Assembly (NCBI GenBank): GCA_050013255.1
Contig: JBEKFP010000003.1
Coordinates: 64,001 to 128,000 of the forward strand
From: Candidatus Bathyarchaeia archaeon
GTDB lineage: Archaea > Thermoproteota > Bathyarchaeia > 40CM-2-53-6
DNA: 64,000 nucleotides
Reading direction: 5' to 3'
Shown here: piece by piece, positions 24,608-64,000 of the stretch
Layout of the letters: each line of letters begins with the position of its first letter
Position numbering within the stretch: the first letter of the stretch is position 1
Notes under the pieces: generated by a model
Told to the model about the DNA's origin: nothing
Databases searched by the model: none
Seen by the model: the letters and a program-made list of their open reading frames with translations, nothing else
Position numbers and translations under genes: made by a program

Positions 24608-24703
24608 TGGGCCGGGCCGGACTTGAACCGGCGACCATCTGCGCTCGGAACATTTGGTGGTGTTTGTCAGGCAGATATCCTAACCAGGCTAGACGACCGG
24701 CCC
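24608..24703 (-). tRNA. tRNA-Val(GAC) with 21-nt canonical 37/38 intron (24644-24664), CCA not encoded
   Basis: GGGCCGGTCGTCTAGCCTGGTTAGGATATCTGCCT-GAC-A[AACACCACCAAATGTTCCGAG]CGCAGATGGTCGCCGGTTCAAGTCCGGCCCGGCCCA; all stems pair. Confidence 0.93.
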
Positions 24704-55481: not shown

Positions 55482-56054
55482 ATGTCGCAGGAACGCATAC
55501 GGAGCTTCATCGCAGTTGACCTCGATGAGGCTTCAATACGCGAGCGAATAGTCGCGGTTCAGAGGGGTTTGGAGCAGACACGCGCACAACTGAAAATCGT
55601 GGAGCCAGAGATAATGCATCTGACACTCCGCTTTCTAGGAGAGGTTCCACAGACAACGGTTGGGAAAGTTGAGGAGGCGATGGATTCTGTGCGTTTTCCG
55701 CCGTTCGAAGCAGAGTTCACCGGCCTCGGAGTGTTCCCAAACCCGAGGCGAATCAACGTTGTCTGGGTGGGAATGAAGCATGGGCAAGAGCAATTGAACG
55801 GTATTTTCCAGCAGCTTGAACCGAAGCTTAGGCAGATTGGCTTGCCACCCGACGACAAGGGTTTCAGCCCTCACATGACAATCGCTCGCGTCAAGTCCGC
55901 TATGAACAGGGATGCCTTGGCGCAGTATGTTGAGAGTAAGCGTAGCGAAGAGTTCGGGAAGATGGCGGTAAAGGCTGTGCGATTAAAGAAGAGCACATTG
56001 ACCCCTAGGGGGCCGATTTACACAACAATCCACGAGGTAATAGCTTCGCCCTAA
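55482..56054 (+). CDS. thpR: RNA 2',3'-cyclic phosphodiesterase (2'-5' RNA ligase family)
   Basis: Two HxT motifs (HLTL, PHMTIAR), S.LTP.GPIY. Confidence 0.93.
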   Translation: MSQERIRSFIAVDLDEASIRERIVAVQRGLEQTRAQLKIVEPEIMHLTLRFLGEVPQTTVGKVEEAMDSVRFPPFEAEFTGLGVFPNPRRINVVWVGMKHGQEQLNGIFQQLEPKLRQIGLPPDDKGFSPHMTIARVKSAMNRDALAQYVESKRSEEFGKMAVKAVRLKKSTLTPRGPIYTTIHEVIASP

Positions 56055-56062
56055 CGGATCAA

Positions 56063-57502
56063 GTGTACGTCTTGGACAAGTTCGGAGAGGTTTGTGATGC
56101 CGTTAAGAAGAAGATTGCTCCTTCACTGAAATTGAAAAGCGCAGTTGAGACAAGGGCTGAGCAGATTAGGGCTGCTGTCGAGCAGGAGTGCGTTAAGGCG
56201 AATCTCGAAGCTGAGGTCCGCTTGGACGGCTCCGTCGCGAAGGACACATGGATACGGGATCATGCCGACGTCGATATTTTCATGAGAGTAAGCCCACAGC
56301 TAACCAAAACGCAACTGCGAGATGTGTGCTTGCCAATTGCACGCGAGGCGCTTCTCCCTCACACAATCGTCGAGAGGTATGCGGAGCACCCGTACATAGA
56401 ATCAACAGTAGAATTGGGTAGTAAGAGTGAGCTTCGGGTCAACGTTGTCCCATGCTACAAAGTCGAGAAAGGTAAATGGCTAAGCGCCACAGACAGGAGC
56501 CCCTACCACACCGAGTACATTAACCAACACTTCACTAAGGAGCAGCACGACGAAGTTCGCTTGCTCAAGGCCTTCATGAGGGGGATAGGGAGCTATGGAG
56601 CAGACATCAAAACTGGCGGCTTCAGCGGCATGCTATGCGAGACGCTCATAGTTTCGCGCAAGGATTTCCATCGTGTTGTTCAAGATTTCATGGGATGGCA
56701 TGAGGACGAAGTCATAGACATTGAGAACTACTACGAGGGCAGGCGTGCAGAAGCGCACCGCGTCTTTCGAGAACCATTGATCGTCATCGATCCTGTGGAC
56801 AAAGGCCGCAATTTAGCAGCCGCGGTCCGAGAGAACCAGCTCTGCAATTTTGTCGCTGCATGCAGGCAACTTGACTGGAAACCCACATCTGCTCTATTCG
56901 CGCAACCAAAAGTGAAGGCGTTGACCCCCGCTAATTACCGGAAACTCATTCGAACCCGTGGGTCGACAATCATCTGCCTAGTCGTGGGAAGAATAGATGC
57001 AGTTGTCGACATTCTATGGAGCCAACTCTACCGCACGCAGAGAGCGCTCGTCAACCTTCTGGAGAACAACGATTTCAAAGTGGTCCGATCATGGGCGTGG
57101 AGCGATGAAAAATCGTTGAACATAATTCTCTTCGAACTGGAGCAAGGATGTTTGCCTCGTCCGAAACGCCACGATGGTCCTTCAGTTTACGGGTTTGATG
57201 AGAGTGCTTCGTTCCTATCAAAACACGCGCCGAATCCCAATACAATCTCGGGCCCTTGGATTGAAAATGGCCATTGGGTTGTAGAAAAGAGGAGGTCAGT
57301 TGTTTCCGCAAATGCCTTGCTCAAGTCAGCACTTCGTTCTGGAGGGAAAGACGTCGGCGTTGCTTCTTTGCTTGCTGAGTCCTTCAGGAAGAGGTTACAA
57401 ATTCTTGAAAATGAAAGGATTGTAAGGCTGATCGTCTCAAATACGGAGTTTGCCAAGGCCATGAGAACTTACCTCTCAGGAAGGCCAGCATGGTTTGCAT
57501 GA
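56063..57502 (+). CDS. cca: CCA-adding tRNA nucleotidyltransferase (class I, archaeal)
   Basis: GS.AKDTW....DVDIF, YAEHPY, SATDRSPYHT, VRLLKAF, GFSG, DPVD..RN. Confidence 0.94.
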   Translation: MYVLDKFGEVCDAVKKKIAPSLKLKSAVETRAEQIRAAVEQECVKANLEAEVRLDGSVAKDTWIRDHADVDIFMRVSPQLTKTQLRDVCLPIAREALLPHTIVERYAEHPYIESTVELGSKSELRVNVVPCYKVEKGKWLSATDRSPYHTEYINQHFTKEQHDEVRLLKAFMRGIGSYGADIKTGGFSGMLCETLIVSRKDFHRVVQDFMGWHEDEVIDIENYYEGRRAEAHRVFREPLIVIDPVDKGRNLAAAVRENQLCNFVAACRQLDWKPTSALFAQPKVKALTPANYRKLIRTRGSTIICLVVGRIDAVVDILWSQLYRTQRALVNLLENNDFKVVRSWAWSDEKSLNIILFELEQGCLPRPKRHDGPSVYGFDESASFLSKHAPNPNTISGPWIENGHWVVEKRRSVVSANALLKSALRSGGKDVGVASLLAESFRKRLQILENERIVRLIVSNTEFAKAMRTYLSGRPAWFA

Positions 57503-58253
57503 AAACGAAATACCCCTACATGGGCTTCTGCAGTCCCGTTACTCACACATACTCACCTATCCTGGTACAGATCCCGATGAAGCGAAGGAAAGGATAATGG
57601 AGCTTTCAGAGATTGGGATTTCCGCTCTTCGTTTCCGAGGGGTCACCCAGATAGGCGGTATCCCAATTCTTGGGAAAGGTTGCGTTGGCGTCGTGACGCA
57701 GGCTCGTCTTGAAGGGAAACTTGTCGCTTTGAAGATCCGGCGTCTGGACGCCGACCGGCCATCGATGAACGACGAGGCTAGGCTGTTGCGGTTGGCGAAT
57801 AGCGTTGATGTTGGGCCGCGTTTGATTTCTGCATCAAAGAACTTTCTAGCAATGGATTTTTTCCGAGGCATTCCACTATTCCGATGGGCAGAGGGTTCAA
57901 GGACAGGTGGAAGAGTGTTGAGGGAGCTAGTCACACGCCTCGTTACATGTTGCTTCATGCTTGACTCGATTGGGCTTGACCACGGGGAGTTGAGCCACGC
58001 CCCCAAGAATGTTCTTGTTAACAAGTTTGGCCATCCCTGTATTGTTGATTTCGAGAGCGCGAGCACGGCAAGGCGCGTCGCAAACGTCACATCACTACTT
58101 CAATACTTCCTGTTCGGAAGGGTGTCGAAAACGCTTCACGCTTCACAACTCTTCCCGGACAGAAGGAAGATCGTGAAGGCCCTAGGCGAATACAAGCACG
58201 ATGGGTCGGTTGAAAATTTCCAGAGCGTGTTAGGCGCGCTTGGCCTGTTATGA
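57495..58253 (+). CDS. RIO-like Ser/Thr kinase (archaeal COG2112-type)
   Basis: LGKG..GVV, ALKIRR.D, DHGELS, VDFESAS. Confidence 0.85.
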   Translation: MHENEIPLHGLLQSRYSHILTYPGTDPDEAKERIMELSEIGISALRFRGVTQIGGIPILGKGCVGVVTQARLEGKLVALKIRRLDADRPSMNDEARLLRLANSVDVGPRLISASKNFLAMDFFRGIPLFRWAEGSRTGGRVLRELVTRLVTCCFMLDSIGLDHGELSHAPKNVLVNKFGHPCIVDFESASTARRVANVTSLLQYFLFGRVSKTLHASQLFPDRRKIVKALGEYKHDGSVENFQSVLGALGLL

Positions 58254-58292
58254 AAGGTTCTTATGAGCGCTCATTTCTTTTCTGCCTCGAAC

Positions 58293-58472
58293 GGGGCCGT
58301 CGTCTAGAAGAGACTGCTTAGCAACTCTCTGGACAACTTGGTCTGGGAACACGATTCCGCCAACAGGATACCAGAGCGCAAATGCGCGCGGTGAACCTGG
58401 GGCGCTGGCGTCCCTAAGAACGAAAAGTCTCAGGGCCAGAGGTCGTGGGTTCAAATCCCACCGGCCCCACCA
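58293..58472 (+). tRNA. tRNA-Pro(GGG) with four BHB introns (15/16, 20b/21, 30/31, 45/46), CCA encoded
   Basis: Exons 58293-307, 58337-344, 58365-374, 58396-410 and 58442-472 join to a 79-nt cloverleaf GGGGCCGTCGTCTAGCTTGGTCTAGGATACCAGCCTGGGGCGCTGGCGGTCGTGGGTTCAAATCCCACCGGCCCCACCA. Confidence 0.9.
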
Positions 58473-58631
58473 TCTAACGAACCGTCTACCCTCAGCGAAA
58501 TTGCAACATTCGCATTCCATCTCAAAAAGAACGGCTAACGAGACTCCACGATTAGAGGAACAGTCCAGACACTCAAAGCCATAGGAAGAAACGTAAACCT
58601 GTTAGAACGAATAGCCACGATAAATTTCTGA
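58473..58631 (+). pseudogene. Fragment of tyrosine integrase (region following att)
   Basis: In frame through the tRNA end: QIPPAPP-SNEPSTLSEIATFAFHLKKNG*RDSTIRGTVQTLKAIGRNVNLL; internal TAA at 58536. Confidence 0.55.
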
Positions 58632-58737
58632 GTAGAGACATAGTGCTAACGGCAGAGTAGTTTATCCACTTGTTAGCAGAAAACACTTGTGATAGGGACT
58701 CCAAGGACTTTATCCTATAATTGATACGCTAGAGGGC

Positions 58738-59526
58738 CTACCTCTTTCTCTTCCGCTGCCTAAGCAGCATAACTAGAGTGACCACGAACAGAGCAGCGAA
58801 TACTACAGCTCCGCCAGCATAGAGCTGGTCTGCTGAAAACGTGAATGCCTGGGTCAGGGGCTGCGAGATAGCTTCGGTTTTGAGAAGGTTCATCGTCGTA
58901 GACGCAGGAATGGGGTTCGTAGCAGTGGTGTACATTGTGAAAGTTTCGACTTGAGACTTTGCGGACCACACGTTCAATGTGTACTGGACAGACTTTCTGC
59001 TATTTCCGGTCGTTAGAATCCAATAGTACTGGCCATCGCCCGGAGCTGTCCAGGCGGTTTCATAGGATGTCAAGATTTGAAACATTGCAAACACCGCAGG
59101 CCAAGCGCCGTTGTAACCATTTTGTGTGCCACATACAACGACATTGGGTGTTATAGGAGAATAATCGGGTTCATTTATGATGTTCAGAGAAGCAAACTGA
59201 GCTGCCGTCATAATATAGAAAACAAGCGGATTGTTGTTCGACGTTATCGAAAAGGAAACTTCAGCGCCCTGGGTCACGACAAAATAGTCATACACGATGG
59301 GACAGAGTTGAAGCAAGGAACCCTGGGAGTACACATAGATTCCAGGTGTTCCACCCAGCTTGCCTGCATAAGGAGAGGAACCATAATCGGTAGTGTAGGT
59401 TGTTGTCCCATAGCTTGTAGCTACAGGGGTGGTGACCGTGGTATACGCCTGACTTTGAACTGCTGGCAAACTGACAACTGGAAGCATAAGTAGAATCGTT
59501 ACTAGAAGGCGAATAAATTTCGACAA
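58738..59526 (-). CDS. Secreted, C-terminally anchored hypothetical protein (possible GOLD-like beta-sandwich)
   Basis: Signal peptide, Thr-rich ends, FYIM, P.DGQYYW, TM + RQRKRKR. Confidence 0.72.
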   Translation of the reverse strand: MSKFIRLLVTILLMLPVVSLPAVQSQAYTTVTTPVATSYGTTTYTTDYGSSPYAGKLGGTPGIYVYSQGSLLQLCPIVYDYFVVTQGAEVSFSITSNNNPLVFYIMTAAQFASLNIINEPDYSPITPNVVVCGTQNGYNGAWPAVFAMFQILTSYETAWTAPGDGQYYWILTTGNSRKSVQYTLNVWSAKSQVETFTMYTTATNPIPASTTMNLLKTEAISQPLTQAFTFSADQLYAGGAVVFAALFVVTLVMLLRQRKRKR

Positions 59527-59998
59527 GGCTACTAAGTAGCTTTCATGGTTTACAATAAATCGCTTTGTATATCATACGGCATTGTTCTCGACTGATTGTG
59601 AGTCAGACGACTTCGTACCGAACGTTACAAGGACCGTTATAATACGATTAAGGACTACATGCGTCTTCGAGACGCCTAATCCATACTTTATCATCAGAGC
59701 GGCCAACTCTCAACAGCTTCAAGAATTGGAAGTTCCCGCCACTATCCGAAAGAGTCTTCAGCAAAGGCAGCTGCACGCTGGTTTGTTCCGGCAACGCCAT
59801 AGTATGGTCATTCAGATTGAGAATGGCACTCTAGGTTAAATCGTGACTCGTAATTGATTCTTTCCCAAGAATCAGCCCAAGAGACAGTTTTGGGTTCCTC
59901 TCGCTCGTCATGCTCGTCTACTTTCACAATTCACTGACCGTTAGACAGAAGCATCGAGTCCAGTTATTTGCTTACATGATTCACGGCAAGAACCGTGA

Positions 59999-60151
59999 AT
60001 GAAGTTGAGCTGTCCGATTTGTGACCTGGAACTTCTCGGCCAAGATAAATGCCCGCTGAAACGTTGCGAACGATGTTGCTTATGGTTTGAGCTGCAGGAT
60101 GACGGCAAGCTCATTCCCCTACGAATTGATAATCTAGCGAAATATCTCTAG
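59999..60151 (+). CDS. 50-aa zinc-finger microprotein
   Basis: Not in ORF track: MKLSCPICDLELLGQDKCPLKRCERCCLWFELQDDGKLIPLRIDNLAKYL*. Confidence 0.55.
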   Translation: MKLSCPICDLELLGQDKCPLKRCERCCLWFELQDDGKLIPLRIDNLAKYL

Positions 60152-60163
60152 AGCTGTCTAAGA

Positions 60164-60346
60164 TTGCTATTCGAGAACAAGTCAACTAGAAGTCCTAACT
60201 GCAAGAACCAACTAGTGTGGATTAGCCACGTTAAACTGTGGAAGCGTGCGAGGGAGATTAACGAATTCAATTTCTCCTGTGAAACATGCAAGCGCCAGTA
60301 CCAATTCATAGATAACAAGATTATCGAGAAGATACTCTCCTCCTAG
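60164..60346 (+). CDS. Small zinc-ribbon-like protein (first Cys replaced by Ser)
   Basis: SPNC...FSCETCKRQY. Confidence 0.45.
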   Translation: MLFENKSTRSPNCKNQLVWISHVKLWKRAREINEFNFSCETCKRQYQFIDNKIIEKILSS

Positions 60347-60574
60347 ATAACCTGGTTTTTGTTTCGGAGAATTTTCTCAATGCTGCAATTCCTACTGTTG
60401 CAACCAAGAGGGACGCAGCCATTCCGCGTTTTGCTATTGGATTCTGCTGTGATGGCCAATGAGAACAGAGAAGTTATGGGCCTGAGAGGCCACTGGGGTC
60501 AAGGAAAACGGGGAGGATTTGGCAAGTATTAAGAGCCTTCGACTTCAACTTATAGATTCTCTAGGTTTGAAGTT

Positions 60575-61309
60575 ATGAAGAGATTCATCCCAGTCACCTT
60601 AGTCCTACTGTTCCTATTCGCGTTGCCCCATGTGGCGGCATCTCCAAGTGCCGTCATTCACAACAACACTAGCAACTACATAGATGAGGTTGGTTACCTT
60701 CATGTGGTGGGCGAAGCGCAAAATACCGGCGATGTTTGGTTACAATCTGTGCGCATCGGCGCCACCTTCAAAGACCAGAACGGCGCCGTAGTGGGTACTT
60801 CCTTCACTTACACGTTGCTCGACCGCCTGCCCCCCGGTGTTACTTCAGGCTTTGACGTGTTCGAATTTGACAAGGGGAAGTCGGCGATGATTCGAAGTTA
60901 CACACTCGCAATAGAGTTCGAGACGGCCGAACCATTGACCACTGCCCTAGAGATTATCAATACGTCCTCATCAAAGGATAGCTTTGGATTTTTGACTATA
61001 GTGGGCGAAGTCAAGAACAACGGTGACACAATCAGCGAATACACGGAAGTCGTAGCCATCTTCTACGGCGCCAACGGCAATGTGGTCGACGTGGGCTACA
61101 CGTTCACTGAACCGACCACCGTTCAACCGCGCAGCCAACAATCCTTCAAACTTATACCAACAAGTGACCCCCAGAGCAACTTAGCCACTAGGTGGGTCTT
61201 GGACACGCAAAGTAATCAGTATGCAAGTGTCTCCGAAACCATTTGGCCAGCACTCATGTTGGCCGCAGCCCTGTCCCTATGTGGTTTTGCTATGCGAAAA
61301 AAGAACTGA
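60575..61309 (+). CDS. Tandem FxLYD-domain surface protein
   Basis: Two repeats of VVGE..N.G...V...F.D..G.VV; signal peptide; C-terminal TM. Confidence 0.82.
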   Translation: MKRFIPVTLVLLFLFALPHVAASPSAVIHNNTSNYIDEVGYLHVVGEAQNTGDVWLQSVRIGATFKDQNGAVVGTSFTYTLLDRLPPGVTSGFDVFEFDKGKSAMIRSYTLAIEFETAEPLTTALEIINTSSSKDSFGFLTIVGEVKNNGDTISEYTEVVAIFYGANGNVVDVGYTFTEPTTVQPRSQQSFKLIPTSDPQSNLATRWVLDTQSNQYASVSETIWPALMLAAALSLCGFAMRKKN

Positions 61310-61417
61310 CAAGCGGATATCAGTGTGTTCGTGAGAGCTTCGCCCAACAAAATTGAGCTCATAAGGCCTGCCCGAAGTTTCTGACTAGGCTTTGGAGTCC
61401 CATGATTCCCACGATTC

Positions 61418-61445
61418 GTGGATTCGAATCCCATCGGCCCGACAA
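61418..61445 (+). repeat. Degenerate tRNA 3'-end (att remnant)
   Basis: GTGGATTCGAATCCCATCGGCCCGACAA, 23/28 identical to the tRNA-Pro 3' end. Confidence 0.6.
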
Positions 61446-61531
61446 AAATCAAGGCTTCACAAAGATAATTAACACAAAGGCGAGGATTAAGATACTGGAA
61501 ACAGGTTTCGTCCAGCCTTTGAGTTGGAAAC

Positions 61532-62848
61532 TTGCCCTTTCCCGATCCTAAGGCTCTTGTGGCACTGGCTATTTTCGTCGCAACTTATGGTGTTCTAGCT
61601 TTTCGCAATGTGAAAGGATGGAAGTTTCCAATTTGGCTGATTCTGCTGATTGGTGCAGCTGCGATGGTTTTGTCAGGGTCGATCAGTGTAACCGACGCCT
61701 ACAAGGCAGTTGACCTTCATGTCATTCTATTTCTCTTCAGCATGTTCACTCTCGTCACAGCACTCGACATCGCAGGCGTCCTGGACGCATTTACAACTAG
61801 GCTCTTGCTTAGGGCGAAAAAACCCGAGGACGTCTTGTATCTCACATTCTTCGGCTTTGCAGCAGCCAGCGCCGTTCTGATGAACGACACCCTAGCCCTC
61901 ATGGGTACACCAGTCATGATTTCGCTCGCCAAGAAGATGAAGATTTCCTCACGACCTCTTCTTCTCACCTTAGCATTCGCTGTTACTATTGGCAGCGCCG
62001 TAACACCGATGGGAAATCCGCAGAACTTACTCGTAGCTTTGGGCAGCGGAATGCGTGCCCCCGTTCTCACCTTTGCGAGATACCTCCTCATTCCTACAAT
62101 AGTCAACCTCCTGCTAACCTACTATCTTCTGAGGCATCAGCTCCGCAACGAGTTTGCGAAAGCACGAAAAGGTTTCCGTGACCTGGTCGATTTCGAAGCG
62201 TCAACACAGAAAGACGTGATGAAAGACGGTGGACTGGCAAAGCTTGCCATCTCTGTCACCTGTCTAACTATTGCGGCAATCTTTCTCATAAACATCCTTG
62301 AAGAGGCAGGTGTTCCAACGCCTTTCGGAATCGCAGAGGTATCACTTTTCGGAGCAGCCCTGCTTTTGGCCCTCTCCGGTCGAAGCAGGGAGATCATTCA
62401 ATCGATCGATTGGGGTATCCTTGTTTTGTTCGCTTCTCTCTTCGTGCTTACGCAGGCCGTTTGGGATAATGGGATCATCGCGGCGATGGCGAGCTACTTG
62501 CCTACGATCAGTGCTCAGAATCCGCATTCTTCGATACTCGCAATTCTGGTTTCTAGCGTTGGGCTTAGCCAAGTCTTGAGCAATGTGCCGATGGTTGCGC
62601 TCTATATTCCGCTCATGAAATCATTGAATTTTGGTCCCCAGAACGTGTACGCCTGGATTGCGCTTGGAGGCGGAAGCACGCTGGCAGGTAATTTCACGCT
62701 CCTTGGGGCAGCCAGTACCCTCATAATTATCGAAGAAGCTGAAAAACAAGGGCACACCTTAGGATTCTTCGACTTTCTAAAAATCGGGATCATCGTAACA
62801 GCGGTCACAGTCGGGGTGCTCTACTTCTTCCTGCTTCTCGTAAGTTGA
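61532..62848 (+). CDS. ArsB/NhaD/SLC13-type anion permease
   Basis: MND, IGSA.TPMGNPQN, SNVP, STLAGN.TLLGAAS; many TMs. Confidence 0.88.
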   Translation: MPFPDPKALVALAIFVATYGVLAFRNVKGWKFPIWLILLIGAAAMVLSGSISVTDAYKAVDLHVILFLFSMFTLVTALDIAGVLDAFTTRLLLRAKKPEDVLYLTFFGFAAASAVLMNDTLALMGTPVMISLAKKMKISSRPLLLTLAFAVTIGSAVTPMGNPQNLLVALGSGMRAPVLTFARYLLIPTIVNLLLTYYLLRHQLRNEFAKARKGFRDLVDFEASTQKDVMKDGGLAKLAISVTCLTIAAIFLINILEEAGVPTPFGIAEVSLFGAALLLALSGRSREIIQSIDWGILVLFASLFVLTQAVWDNGIIAAMASYLPTISAQNPHSSILAILVSSVGLSQVLSNVPMVALYIPLMKSLNFGPQNVYAWIALGGGSTLAGNFTLLGAASTLIIIEEAEKQGHTLGFFDFLKIGIIVTAVTVGVLYFFLLLVS

Positions 62849-62897
62849 GTTGATTCTCAGTATCGAGGGTTCGAGAGTCTCATTGGTCCCACGATTT

Positions 62898-62925
62898 GTG
62901 GGTTCAACTCCCATCGACTCCACGA
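62898..62925 (+). repeat. Degenerate tRNA 3'-end (att remnant)
   Basis: GTGGGTTCAACTCCCATCGACTCCACGA, 23/28 identical to the tRNA-Pro 3' end. Confidence 0.6.
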
Positions 62926-63034
62926 GTGATTGGATGGGGTCTTGCTAGAACTCAGGAAGCAGAAACGGCTCAAAATGGGACGATTTAGAAGTAGCCCCAC
63001 CGTACATTACAATTAAGTCCCACCGGCCCCACCA

Positions 63035-63250
63035 CGAATTCTTGCGGTTCACGCGGCGGGTCTCAGATGGCATGACTTGAGGGATTATTTCCACACATCC
63101 TGCGTGAAGGTTGGCATTCCACACCGTGTAGTCCATTTCATGCTTGGACATGTGGCTGAACGAGAGGATCATTTCAGGGACATGATGTCTCGCGACATTG
63201 ACTATCTGCGGAAGGAGTACCTCAAAGTGGAAACACAGTGTTTCGCCTGA
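63035..63250 (+). pseudogene. C-terminal fragment of tyrosine recombinase/integrase
   Basis: GLRWHDLRDYFHTSCVKVGIPHRVVHFMLGH...EDHF...LRKEY; HxxR and LGH present, no start codon, Phe at the expected catalytic Tyr. Confidence 0.75.
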
Positions 63251-63375
63251 TCAAAACGAATAGTAAAACCATCATGTGTGAATGAGGGCACTTTGTCTGA
63301 CGAGAAAATCCCACAGACCCAGAAACGTCCGGTGATCAATCCGCCAAGAACGGGTAGTACGGGAGGTTCCCTGAG

Positions 63376-63778
63376 ATGTTATCGATGAGTCAAGCGAACA
63401 TGGCCATGACTATCCTGGCGCTAGCTTTTGTGGGGGTGGGCTGTCTGTGCGGCGATCATTGGAGTTGGAATGATGTTTTCTTCTCAGATCAACGCCCTGA
63501 TAGCGCACGCAATTGGAGCACCTGTCGTCTTTGCGATTATATCCTTACTCTACTTCAAGAAATTCAGGTATACAACGCCGTTACAGACCGCCCTGATTTT
63601 TCTTGCATTCGTTTTCCTGATGGATTTCTTTGTCGTGGCTTTCGCAATCATGAGGAGTTTCCAAATGTTCATGAGCGTTCTCGGAACATGGATTCCTTTT
63701 GCTCTGATCTTTATCTCGACCTATGCGACAGGAGTGTATGTGACGATGACGCAGCAACAGAAAGGGGGTCACGTGTGA
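63376..63778 (+). pseudogene. Frameshifted membrane protein gene
   Basis: Deleting one G from the G5 run (63432-36) joins MLSMSQANMAMTILALAFVG to WAVCAAIIGVG...MDFFVVA...GTWIPFALIF. Confidence 0.6.
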
Positions 63779-64000
63779 GAACTTTGGGAATGGAGTCCAT
63801 TCTCCTTTTCGGCTTTTATTGCTTCTTCTAGTTTCCTTTCTAACTCAGCAACTTCTTTTCTTTTTTCTGTTAGTTGTTCGGCAAGCAGGACTTTTAGTTT
63901 GGCTTTTTTTTGAACCGTCAAATAATATCCTTTTTCAATCTCTTTCCCTCCAGTCAATGCTGTTGCATTTTTAGAGCCGAATACAATAAGTTCTCCCGGA
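63769..64000 (-). CDS. Partial hypothetical protein (C-terminal coiled coil), continues beyond window
   Basis: Frame open to the window edge: PGELIVFGSKNATALTGGKEIEKGYY... Confidence 0.45.
   Translation of the reverse strand, partial: PGELIVFGSKNATALTGGKEIEKGYYLTVQKKAKLKVLLAEQLTEKRKEVAELERKLEEAIKAEKENGLHSQSSHT

Follow-up and report, generated by a model that had tools for sequence, protein, structure and literature searches.

Positions 58293-58472 (+) of the window, as the whole 64,000-nt stretch of DNA that was analysed is called here, raise the question of whether a tRNA gene divided into five exons can be a working gene. The alternatives are that it is a decaying copy, a gene with another architecture or a product of faulty assembly. 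The analysis indicates that the locus is very probably a functional, single-copy tRNA-Pro(GGG) gene spliced via four bulge-helix-bulge (BHB) introns. The genome in which it lies measures 2.46 Mb in three contigs (C1 to C3) with 50% G+C, and was estimated to be 100% complete with 8.55% contamination. Its relatives within the genus are Candidatus Bathyarchaeia or Bathyarchaeota MAGs from Danish soils and SPRUCE peat, and hence the Thermoproteales setting implied in a preliminary description of this DNA was wrong. The locus occurs in 20 DNA runs; the sequencing runs listed for the window region 56500-60500 are peat and wetland metagenomes, with no RNA run among them.

The gene is 180 nt long (G000:C3:122293-122472). 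On removal of 58308-58336, 58345-58364, 58375-58395 and 58411-58441, a 79-nt product is obtained, which ARAGORN calls as tRNA-Pro(ggg) with a full cloverleaf. The introns have lengths of 29, 20, 21 and 31 nt, which sum to 101 of the 180 nt, and the exons have lengths of 15, 8, 10, 15 and 31 nt, exon 2 being the smallest. In standard numbering, the introns lie at 15/16, 20b/21, 30/31 and 45/46, and the site 37/38 is unused. The preliminary description had given the same coordinates, the 79-nt product with its encoded CCA and the anticodon stem CCAGC/GCTGG, all of which hold; the coordinates likewise bear out its statements on the absence of a 37/38 intron, the intronic share of 101/180 nt and the smallest exon of 8 nt. 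The features are as follows.

58253-58268 (+): putative promoter, a BRE-like purine-rich GAAAGG and then a TATA-like TTCTTATGAG, some 25-40 nt before the start of the mature tRNA
58293-58307 (+): exon 1, 15 nt, with the acceptor 5' strand, U8, C9, the D-stem 5' strand, A14 and G15; invariant in 18 genus sequences
58308-58336 (+): intron 1, 29 nt, at 15/16, HBh' with H = GTCT/GGAC and h' = AGAGA/TCTCT; loop sequence and length vary in the genus
58337-58344 (+): exon 2, 8 nt, D-loop positions 16-20b including G18 and G19; one C/T difference in 2 of 18 genus sequences
58345-58364 (+): intron 2, 20 nt, at 20b/21, H = TGGT/GCCA, h' = GGAA/TTCC, outer helix of 2 bp; also in three-intron orthologues
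58365-58374 (+): exon 3, 10 nt, with A21, the D-stem 3' strand, A26 and anticodon-stem positions 27-30; invariant in 18 genus sequences
58375-58395 (+): intron 3, 21 nt, at 30/31, H = TACC/GGTG, h' = GCGC/GCGC; also in three-intron orthologues
58396-58410 (+): exon 4, 15 nt, with position 31, the anticodon loop CUGGGGC (GGG, G37), the anticodon-stem 3' strand and positions 44-45; a single exact copy in the genome
58411-58441 (+): intron 4, 31 nt, at 45/46, H = CTGG/CCAG, h' = CCCT/AGGG; also in three-intron orthologues
58442-58472 (+): exon 5, 31 nt, with positions 46-48, the T arm, the acceptor 3' strand, A73 and CCA; 58445-58472 invariant in the genus

The spliced molecule has a 7-bp acceptor stem (GGGGCCG/CGGCCCC) with the discriminator A73 and an encoded CCA, a 4-bp D stem (GUCU/GGAU) that includes two G-U pairs, and an 11-nt D loop with G18 and G19. 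The 5-bp anticodon stem (CCAGC/GCUGG) carries the loop CUGGGGC, and the T arm reads GUGGG-UUCAAAU-CCCAC with a stem of 5 bp. A parse of the cloverleaf found U8, A14, G18G19, U33, G53, U54U55C56, A58 and C61 all present. Upstream of the gene, the block ATGAAAGnTTmTTATGAG is kept in 12 members of the genus and the flanks diverge. The block is taken as a putative archaeal BRE/TATA promoter; part of its conservation may be due to the stop codon of the upstream ORF.

Every intron exhibits BHB geometry with a 4-bp central helix, two 3-nt bulges and an inner stem directly after them. In the central helix, exon bases -6 to -3 from the 5' cut pair with intron bases -6 to -3 from the 3' cut, and all four positions are paired in all four introns. 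The bulges, in intron order and with the slash marking the cut, are AG/A and AA/C; CT/G and AC/A; AG/A and AA/C; and CG/T and AG/G. At all eight sites, the exon/intron boundary as set by uninterrupted orthologues (see below) falls after the second bulge base. The inner helix h' measures 5, 4, 4 and 4 bp and the outer helix h measures 0, 2, 0 and 1 bp in introns 1-4, respectively. All central and inner helices claimed earlier are present in this geometry, with the cut 2 nt into 3-nt bulges, and it was also correctly stated that most motifs have no outer helix, as three of the four have 0 or 1 bp. Since three central helices also contain one G-U pair, these motifs are weak substrates by the canonical standard. 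Class was assigned from central-helix pairing, two opposite 3-nt bulges and a helix of at least 2 bp (h or h') on one or both flanks, following the BHB/HBh' classes defined by Marck and Grosjean (2003) as quoted in a 2026 preprint. Judged in this manner from their sequences, the four introns are of the relaxed HBh' class, for which cleavage and ligation are predicted.

BHB-like motifs of a loose kind are common by chance, so that the motif by itself is weak proof. There are 27 loose candidates within the 180-nt gene, and by our own estimate their chance density in the genome is too high for genes to be found from motif clusters. It was therefore considered whether the gene is real and has another architecture, with fewer or shifted introns, a retained insert or pieces joined in trans. 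Besides the plentiful candidates, this explanation can draw on the fact that intron 4 may be slid one base to the left (44/45) with the same product. However, when all combinations of loose candidates between the acceptor strands were enumerated, a tRNA was obtained only from four-intron solutions, the alternatives being 1-4 nt slips of the same introns with lower scores. Moreover, uninterrupted orthologues fix the mature sequence, and hence all four boundaries are set independently of the motifs, save for the 1-nt ambiguity at intron 4, where the BHB geometry prefers 45/46. A different architecture is accordingly regarded as very improbable. In the MFE fold of the 180-nt precursor (z = -4.0), the four inserts form separate hairpins beside the acceptor stem and the T arm. 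As the four central helices occupy different exon bases, all four motifs can coexist.

It had been predicted that the gene would escape standard tRNA finders, and it was found that neither ARAGORN nor the Rfam tRNA model makes a call on the unspliced gene. The tmRNA model gives a sub-threshold match that spans exactly 58293-58472 by way of the acceptor and T arm. On the other strand, the entire gene is covered by a 90-aa ORF (window 58248-58520, -), which is probably spurious; it can be annotated because the tRNA-Pro gene goes undetected. The sole Rfam-detected tRNA in the window is a tRNA-Val(GAC) at 24608-24703 (-) with one 21-nt intron, cut at 39/40 counted from the 5' end. This intron has a full hBHBh' motif with h of 7 bp, h' of 3 bp and a central helix paired at three of four positions.

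Genome-wide, the Rfam tRNA model found 18 loci at threshold and one just below it (19), and ARAGORN with introns allowed made 30 calls, several of them with wrong anticodons or kilobase 'introns'. A census by ARAGORN with a rule of 'fewest introns' was rejected, as it gave wrong anticodons. A solver was used instead, which takes the T arm and acceptor as its anchor, lists BHB candidates and gives each cloverleaf a score. By this means, 22 genes were rebuilt with confidence, all of them confirmed by ARAGORN when spliced. Introns are borne by 21 of the 22, with a mean of 1.8 introns per gene, in a census that is partial (about 10 real loci, notably genes with T-arm introns, stand outside it) and biased towards less interrupted genes; a version with strict motifs returned 15 genes only. 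Four introns occur in the census in tRNA-Pro(GGG), in Lys(UUU) at C1:291271-291457 (-) and in Leu(CAG) at C1:524984-525175 (-), and three in Cys(GCA) at C2:242772-242918 (+). At C2:632656-632884 (+), a 229-nt locus yields a tRNA-Trp(CCA), as called by ARAGORN, when five segments are removed, one of them in the T loop, and is likely a five-intron gene. Four introns are thus neither unique nor maximal within this genome. When each intron with its flanks was searched against the genome by blastn-short, only chance-level matches were obtained; there is no sign of recent intron transposition, a result that neither supports nor excludes it.

For the study of orthologues, one genome per species was searched with the 28 nt at the 3' end of the gene; matches were found in at least 120 archaeal contigs, and the tRNA was rebuilt at each. 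The rebuilt tRNA-Pro(GGG) genes carry 0, 1, 2, 3 or 4 introns and have a nearly constant mature sequence. An uninterrupted gene is present in six MAGs labelled Nitrososphaeria, Thaumarchaeota or Conexivisphaerales (L035, L049, L088, L090, L092 and L115). It has no introns, unlike the Bathyarchaeia gene, and is otherwise alike, being identical to the spliced body at 74 of 76 positions and throughout the 3' 28 nt, a degree of agreement well outside what chance would give. One of these orthologues scores 59.7 bits with RF00005 (cut-off 29 bits), a score that belongs to the orthologue and not to the spliced product. A three-intron form (20b/21, 30/31 and 45/46, with none at 15/16) was found in two other genera of the family and in several soil MAGs named 'Bathyarchaeota BA_x' and 'Crenarchaeota 13_1_40CM'. 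Since these three introns are common to the sister genera, they are older than the genus, and on parsimony, applied here without a tree, the 15/16 intron would have been gained on the genus stem or lost in the sister genera. The survey of relatives for intron number proposed in the preliminary description thus gave four in the genus, three in the sister genera and none in the Nitrososphaeria-type MAGs.

The complete four-intron, 180-nt gene occurs in at least 17 other species of the genus with 84-96% overall identity. In an alignment of 18 genus sequences, the exons are almost invariant, and the intron loops differ in sequence and length with the stems kept paired. Exon 5 positions 46-47 (58442-58443) read AG or AA for GT in 5 of 18 rows as aligned. 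The cells of the BHB pairs are paired in 98.8% of cases, compared with 29-47% when the partners are slid. Three pairs in the inner stem h' of intron 4 show compensatory CG-to-UA changes across the genus, and one pair of the central helix of intron 3 is broken (GGTC) in three of the 18 relatives. The covariation support within the genus is modest and comes mainly from the h' stem of intron 4, as most BHB pairs never vary.

These comparisons bear on the view that the locus is a decaying pseudogene, the inserts of which are never removed, with the CCC/CCU codons read by another tRNA. That the splicing of tRNA-Pro(GGG) is predicted from sequence alone, that standard tRNA models are blind to the locus and that it adjoins a region rich in integration scars would all suit such a view. 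On the other hand, the exons have stayed essentially invariant in 18 species while the inserts vary and yet keep their pairing, the BHB geometry is exact at 8/8 splice sites, and the product is identical at 74 of 76 positions to working-type genes elsewhere. No other Pro(GGG) gene was found in the genome that could take over its role. A pseudogene is considered extremely improbable.

The sole-copy status was examined by BLAST of the mature sequence and by an anticodon-arm scan of the whole genome, a check that the preliminary description had called for, and neither search revealed a further Pro(GGG) gene. Within the 2.46-Mb assembly, exons 1 and 4 each occur only once. The gene is apparently single-copy; given the contamination estimate of 8.55% and the partial census, a hidden copy with different exons is conceivable. 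A sole copy with invariant exons argues for function, and the reading as a functional four-intron gene is retained. Among other proline tRNAs, a tRNA-Pro(UGG) with one intron lies at C2:712228-712326, and Pro(CGG) was not found in the partial census. Several candidates were rejected. The strong 3'-end matches at C2:295575, C1:122343, C1:124705, C1:1306697 and C3:131047-138190 are bare 3' fragments that are not preceded by a tRNA. The ARAGORN 'tRNA-Pro(tgg)' at C1:755912 is, by eye, a serine tRNA (loop CTCGAGA, anticodon CGA and a long variable arm), for which the solver gave no solution, and the 'tRNA-Pro(agg)' at C1:1237017 overlaps a Thr(CGT) gene.

The possibility that a chimeric contig, or a repeat collapsed at the tRNA, has produced the interrupted gene was also weighed. 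In metagenome contigs, the depth jumps over exon 5 and many contigs end there, and the contamination of the MAG is estimated at 8.55%. Nevertheless, the same interrupted gene is present in 17 other genomes of the genus and in at least nine independently deposited MAG records, some with contigs of 0.5-2.4 Mb. In four independent DNA runs from peat and wetland, Logan contigs span the gene from exon 1 to exon 5; their strain variants lie in the introns and the upstream flank only, with no exon variant, and no intron-less joint was seen among them. The shared 3' end, together with the att-like repeats, accounts for the depth peak. The probability that faulty assembly or binning produced the gene is practically negligible.

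The surroundings of the gene were inspected on both sides. Three genes lie directly upstream (window 55482-58253, +), two of which are tied to RNA-end metabolism, and degenerate copies of the tRNA 3' end lie downstream. Those within the window are listed here.

55482-56054 (+): LigT-like 2',5'-ligase/phosphoesterase
56063-57502 (+): CCA-adding enzyme
57495-58253 (+): weak kinase-like ORF
61401-61445 (strand not given): degenerate repeat of the tRNA 3' end
62881-62925 (strand not given): degenerate repeat of the tRNA 3' end
63015-63034 (strand not given): degenerate repeat of the tRNA 3' end

A gene for the CCA-adding enzyme is thus found upstream, yet the tRNA-Pro gene has an encoded CCA. Downstream, the 3' end of exon 5 (T arm, acceptor strand and often CCA) recurs in 9-12 degenerate copies, every 0.7-3.2 kb over about 16 kb, in a region that covers window 58473-64000 and continues beyond it (L143 = G000:C3:122001-140000). 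Most copies are preceded by ATTAGTCCCACGA, and a tyrosine-recombinase ORF (L143:9049-10086; Phage_integrase, E 4e-19) begins inside one of them. Stray copies also occur at the C1 and C2 positions of the bare 3' fragments given above. Judged by their sequence, the copies look like a pile-up of remnants of integrated elements at an integration hot spot in exon 5.

Cutting by EndA and joining by RtcB is the established route for archaeal tRNA introns, and the genome encodes both enzymes. Two EndA paralogues are present. The alpha paralogue (L141:1213-1785, 190 aa) is closest to the alpha subunits of A. pernix, S. tokodaii and P. aerophilum, with which it aligns end-to-end (E 1e-38 to 1e-28), and retains the Tyr/His/Lys triad. 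Its segment GIPKPKP stands opposite DVEKPRG of the Aeropyrum enzyme, so that K43 corresponds to APE K44 and K45 to APE R46 in the Crenarchaea-specific loop. Hirata et al. showed that this loop gives the enzyme the ability to cleave non-canonical motifs and positions (PMC3241643). The second paralogue (L142:1204-1767, 187 aa) is without the His motif and is likely a structural beta subunit. The genes point to a broad-specificity EndA of the (alpha-beta)2 type, the heterotetramer being predicted from the genes alone. The need for such an enzyme had been proposed beforehand and fits the alpha and beta genes and the K43/K45 loop pair. The RtcB match (G000:C1:110968-113778, -) is in two parts, Pfam 1-60 and 49-426, about 1.4 kb apart in a single 1039-aa frame, which suggests an intein-containing RtcB.

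From the gene structure, motifs, conservation and enzyme genes, we infer the following course of transcription, cleavage and ligation. Transcription, probably driven by the gene's own BRE/TATA-like promoter, which lies about 30 nt upstream, would yield a 180-nt precursor. This RNA would form the acceptor stem and T arm, and each insert would fold into a hairpin arm of its own with an HBh' motif. An (alpha-beta)2 EndA would then cut every motif at both of its 3-nt bulges, behind the second bulge base, eight cuts in all, the Crenarchaea-specific loop of its alpha subunit permitting the cutting of motifs without an outer helix, and RtcB would ligate the exons to the 79-nt tRNA with encoded CCA. 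The order of these steps is constrained by the smallest exons. In the precursor, exons 2 (8 nt) and 3 (10 nt) depend mainly on 4-bp pairing with the introns to stay in place, and exon 2, in the D loop, has no pairing to other exons. If all cuts preceded ligation, exon 2 would be set free as an octamer. As the micro-exons are tethered mainly via intron helices, the model probably entails stepwise removal, one intron after another, or ligation-coupled cutting.

According to a review (PMC4033280), and likewise to the tRNAscan-SE 2.0 paper (PMC8450103), an archaeal tRNA gene contains at most three introns. The preliminary description quoted the same maximum and suspected that the present gene exceeds described cases. 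The figure is indeed the one stated in these accounts, but it has been surpassed in Asgard archaea, and the claim of novelty fails. Supplementary Data 4 of Valentin-Alvarado et al. (2024) contains intron-4 columns and lists a tRNA-Trp with four introns from Atabeyarchaeia (PMC11291895), and for Asgard families, as many as five intervening sequences in one tRNA gene are described in a preprint of October 2026. A search of the literature available for the analysis found no publication on tRNA introns of Bathyarchaeia.

The closest likenesses are with the multi-intron tRNAs of Thermoproteales (Pyrobaculum, Thermofilum and Caldivirga; Sugahara et al. 2007/2008, via PMC4033280 and PMC8450103). These have the same 20-30 nt introns, non-canonical sites in the D arm, anticodon stem and variable region, relaxed HBh' motifs and an (alpha-beta)2 EndA with the Crenarchaea-specific loop, and the genes are likewise missed by ordinary tRNA finders. 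They differ in their published maximum of three introns per gene, as against four in the Bathyarchaeia Pro(GGG), and in their hyperthermophilic hosts, the Bathyarchaeia host being a mesophile of soil and peat. In Asgard archaea too, most tRNA genes bear introns, many have several, the sites are mostly non-canonical with many in the D arm, tRNAscan-SE under-calls the tRNAs and the habitat is wetland soil. Four introns were tabulated there for the tRNA-Trp of Atabeyarchaeia-2 (PMC11291895) and five reported in the 2026 preprint. Unlike the present case, these archaea belong to another phylum, and their tRNA-Pro(GGG) has one intron in the tabulated genomes (PMC11291895). The gene therefore belongs to the known multi-intron tRNAs spliced via relaxed BHB motifs by an (alpha-beta)2 EndA and represents neither a record nor a new mechanism.

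It may further be supposed, with a little more confidence than doubt, that this Bathyarchaeia genus is a third independent hot spot of tRNA introns after Thermoproteales and two Asgard classes, that the introns of Pro(GGG) were built up stepwise from none to three to four, and that exon 2 forces ordered or ligation-coupled splicing. The hot-spot reading draws on a mean of at least 1.8 introns per gene in the rebuilt genes, with up to four or five in one gene. For genomes of this kind, the results mean that annotation badly under-counts tRNAs, so that an essential isoacceptor appears to be 'missing', and that tRNA-based completeness or codon-usage inferences are unreliable for this lineage. The locus adds a well-supported four-intron tRNA from Bathyarchaeia, a phylum-level lineage for which no published tRNA-intron survey was found. 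Its internal exons of 8 and 10 nt pose a testable question on the order of cleavage and ligation. The series of 0, 3 and 4 introns with a near-constant mature sequence offers clean material for dating intron gains, and it may also be used to test whether the type of EndA allows introns to spread.
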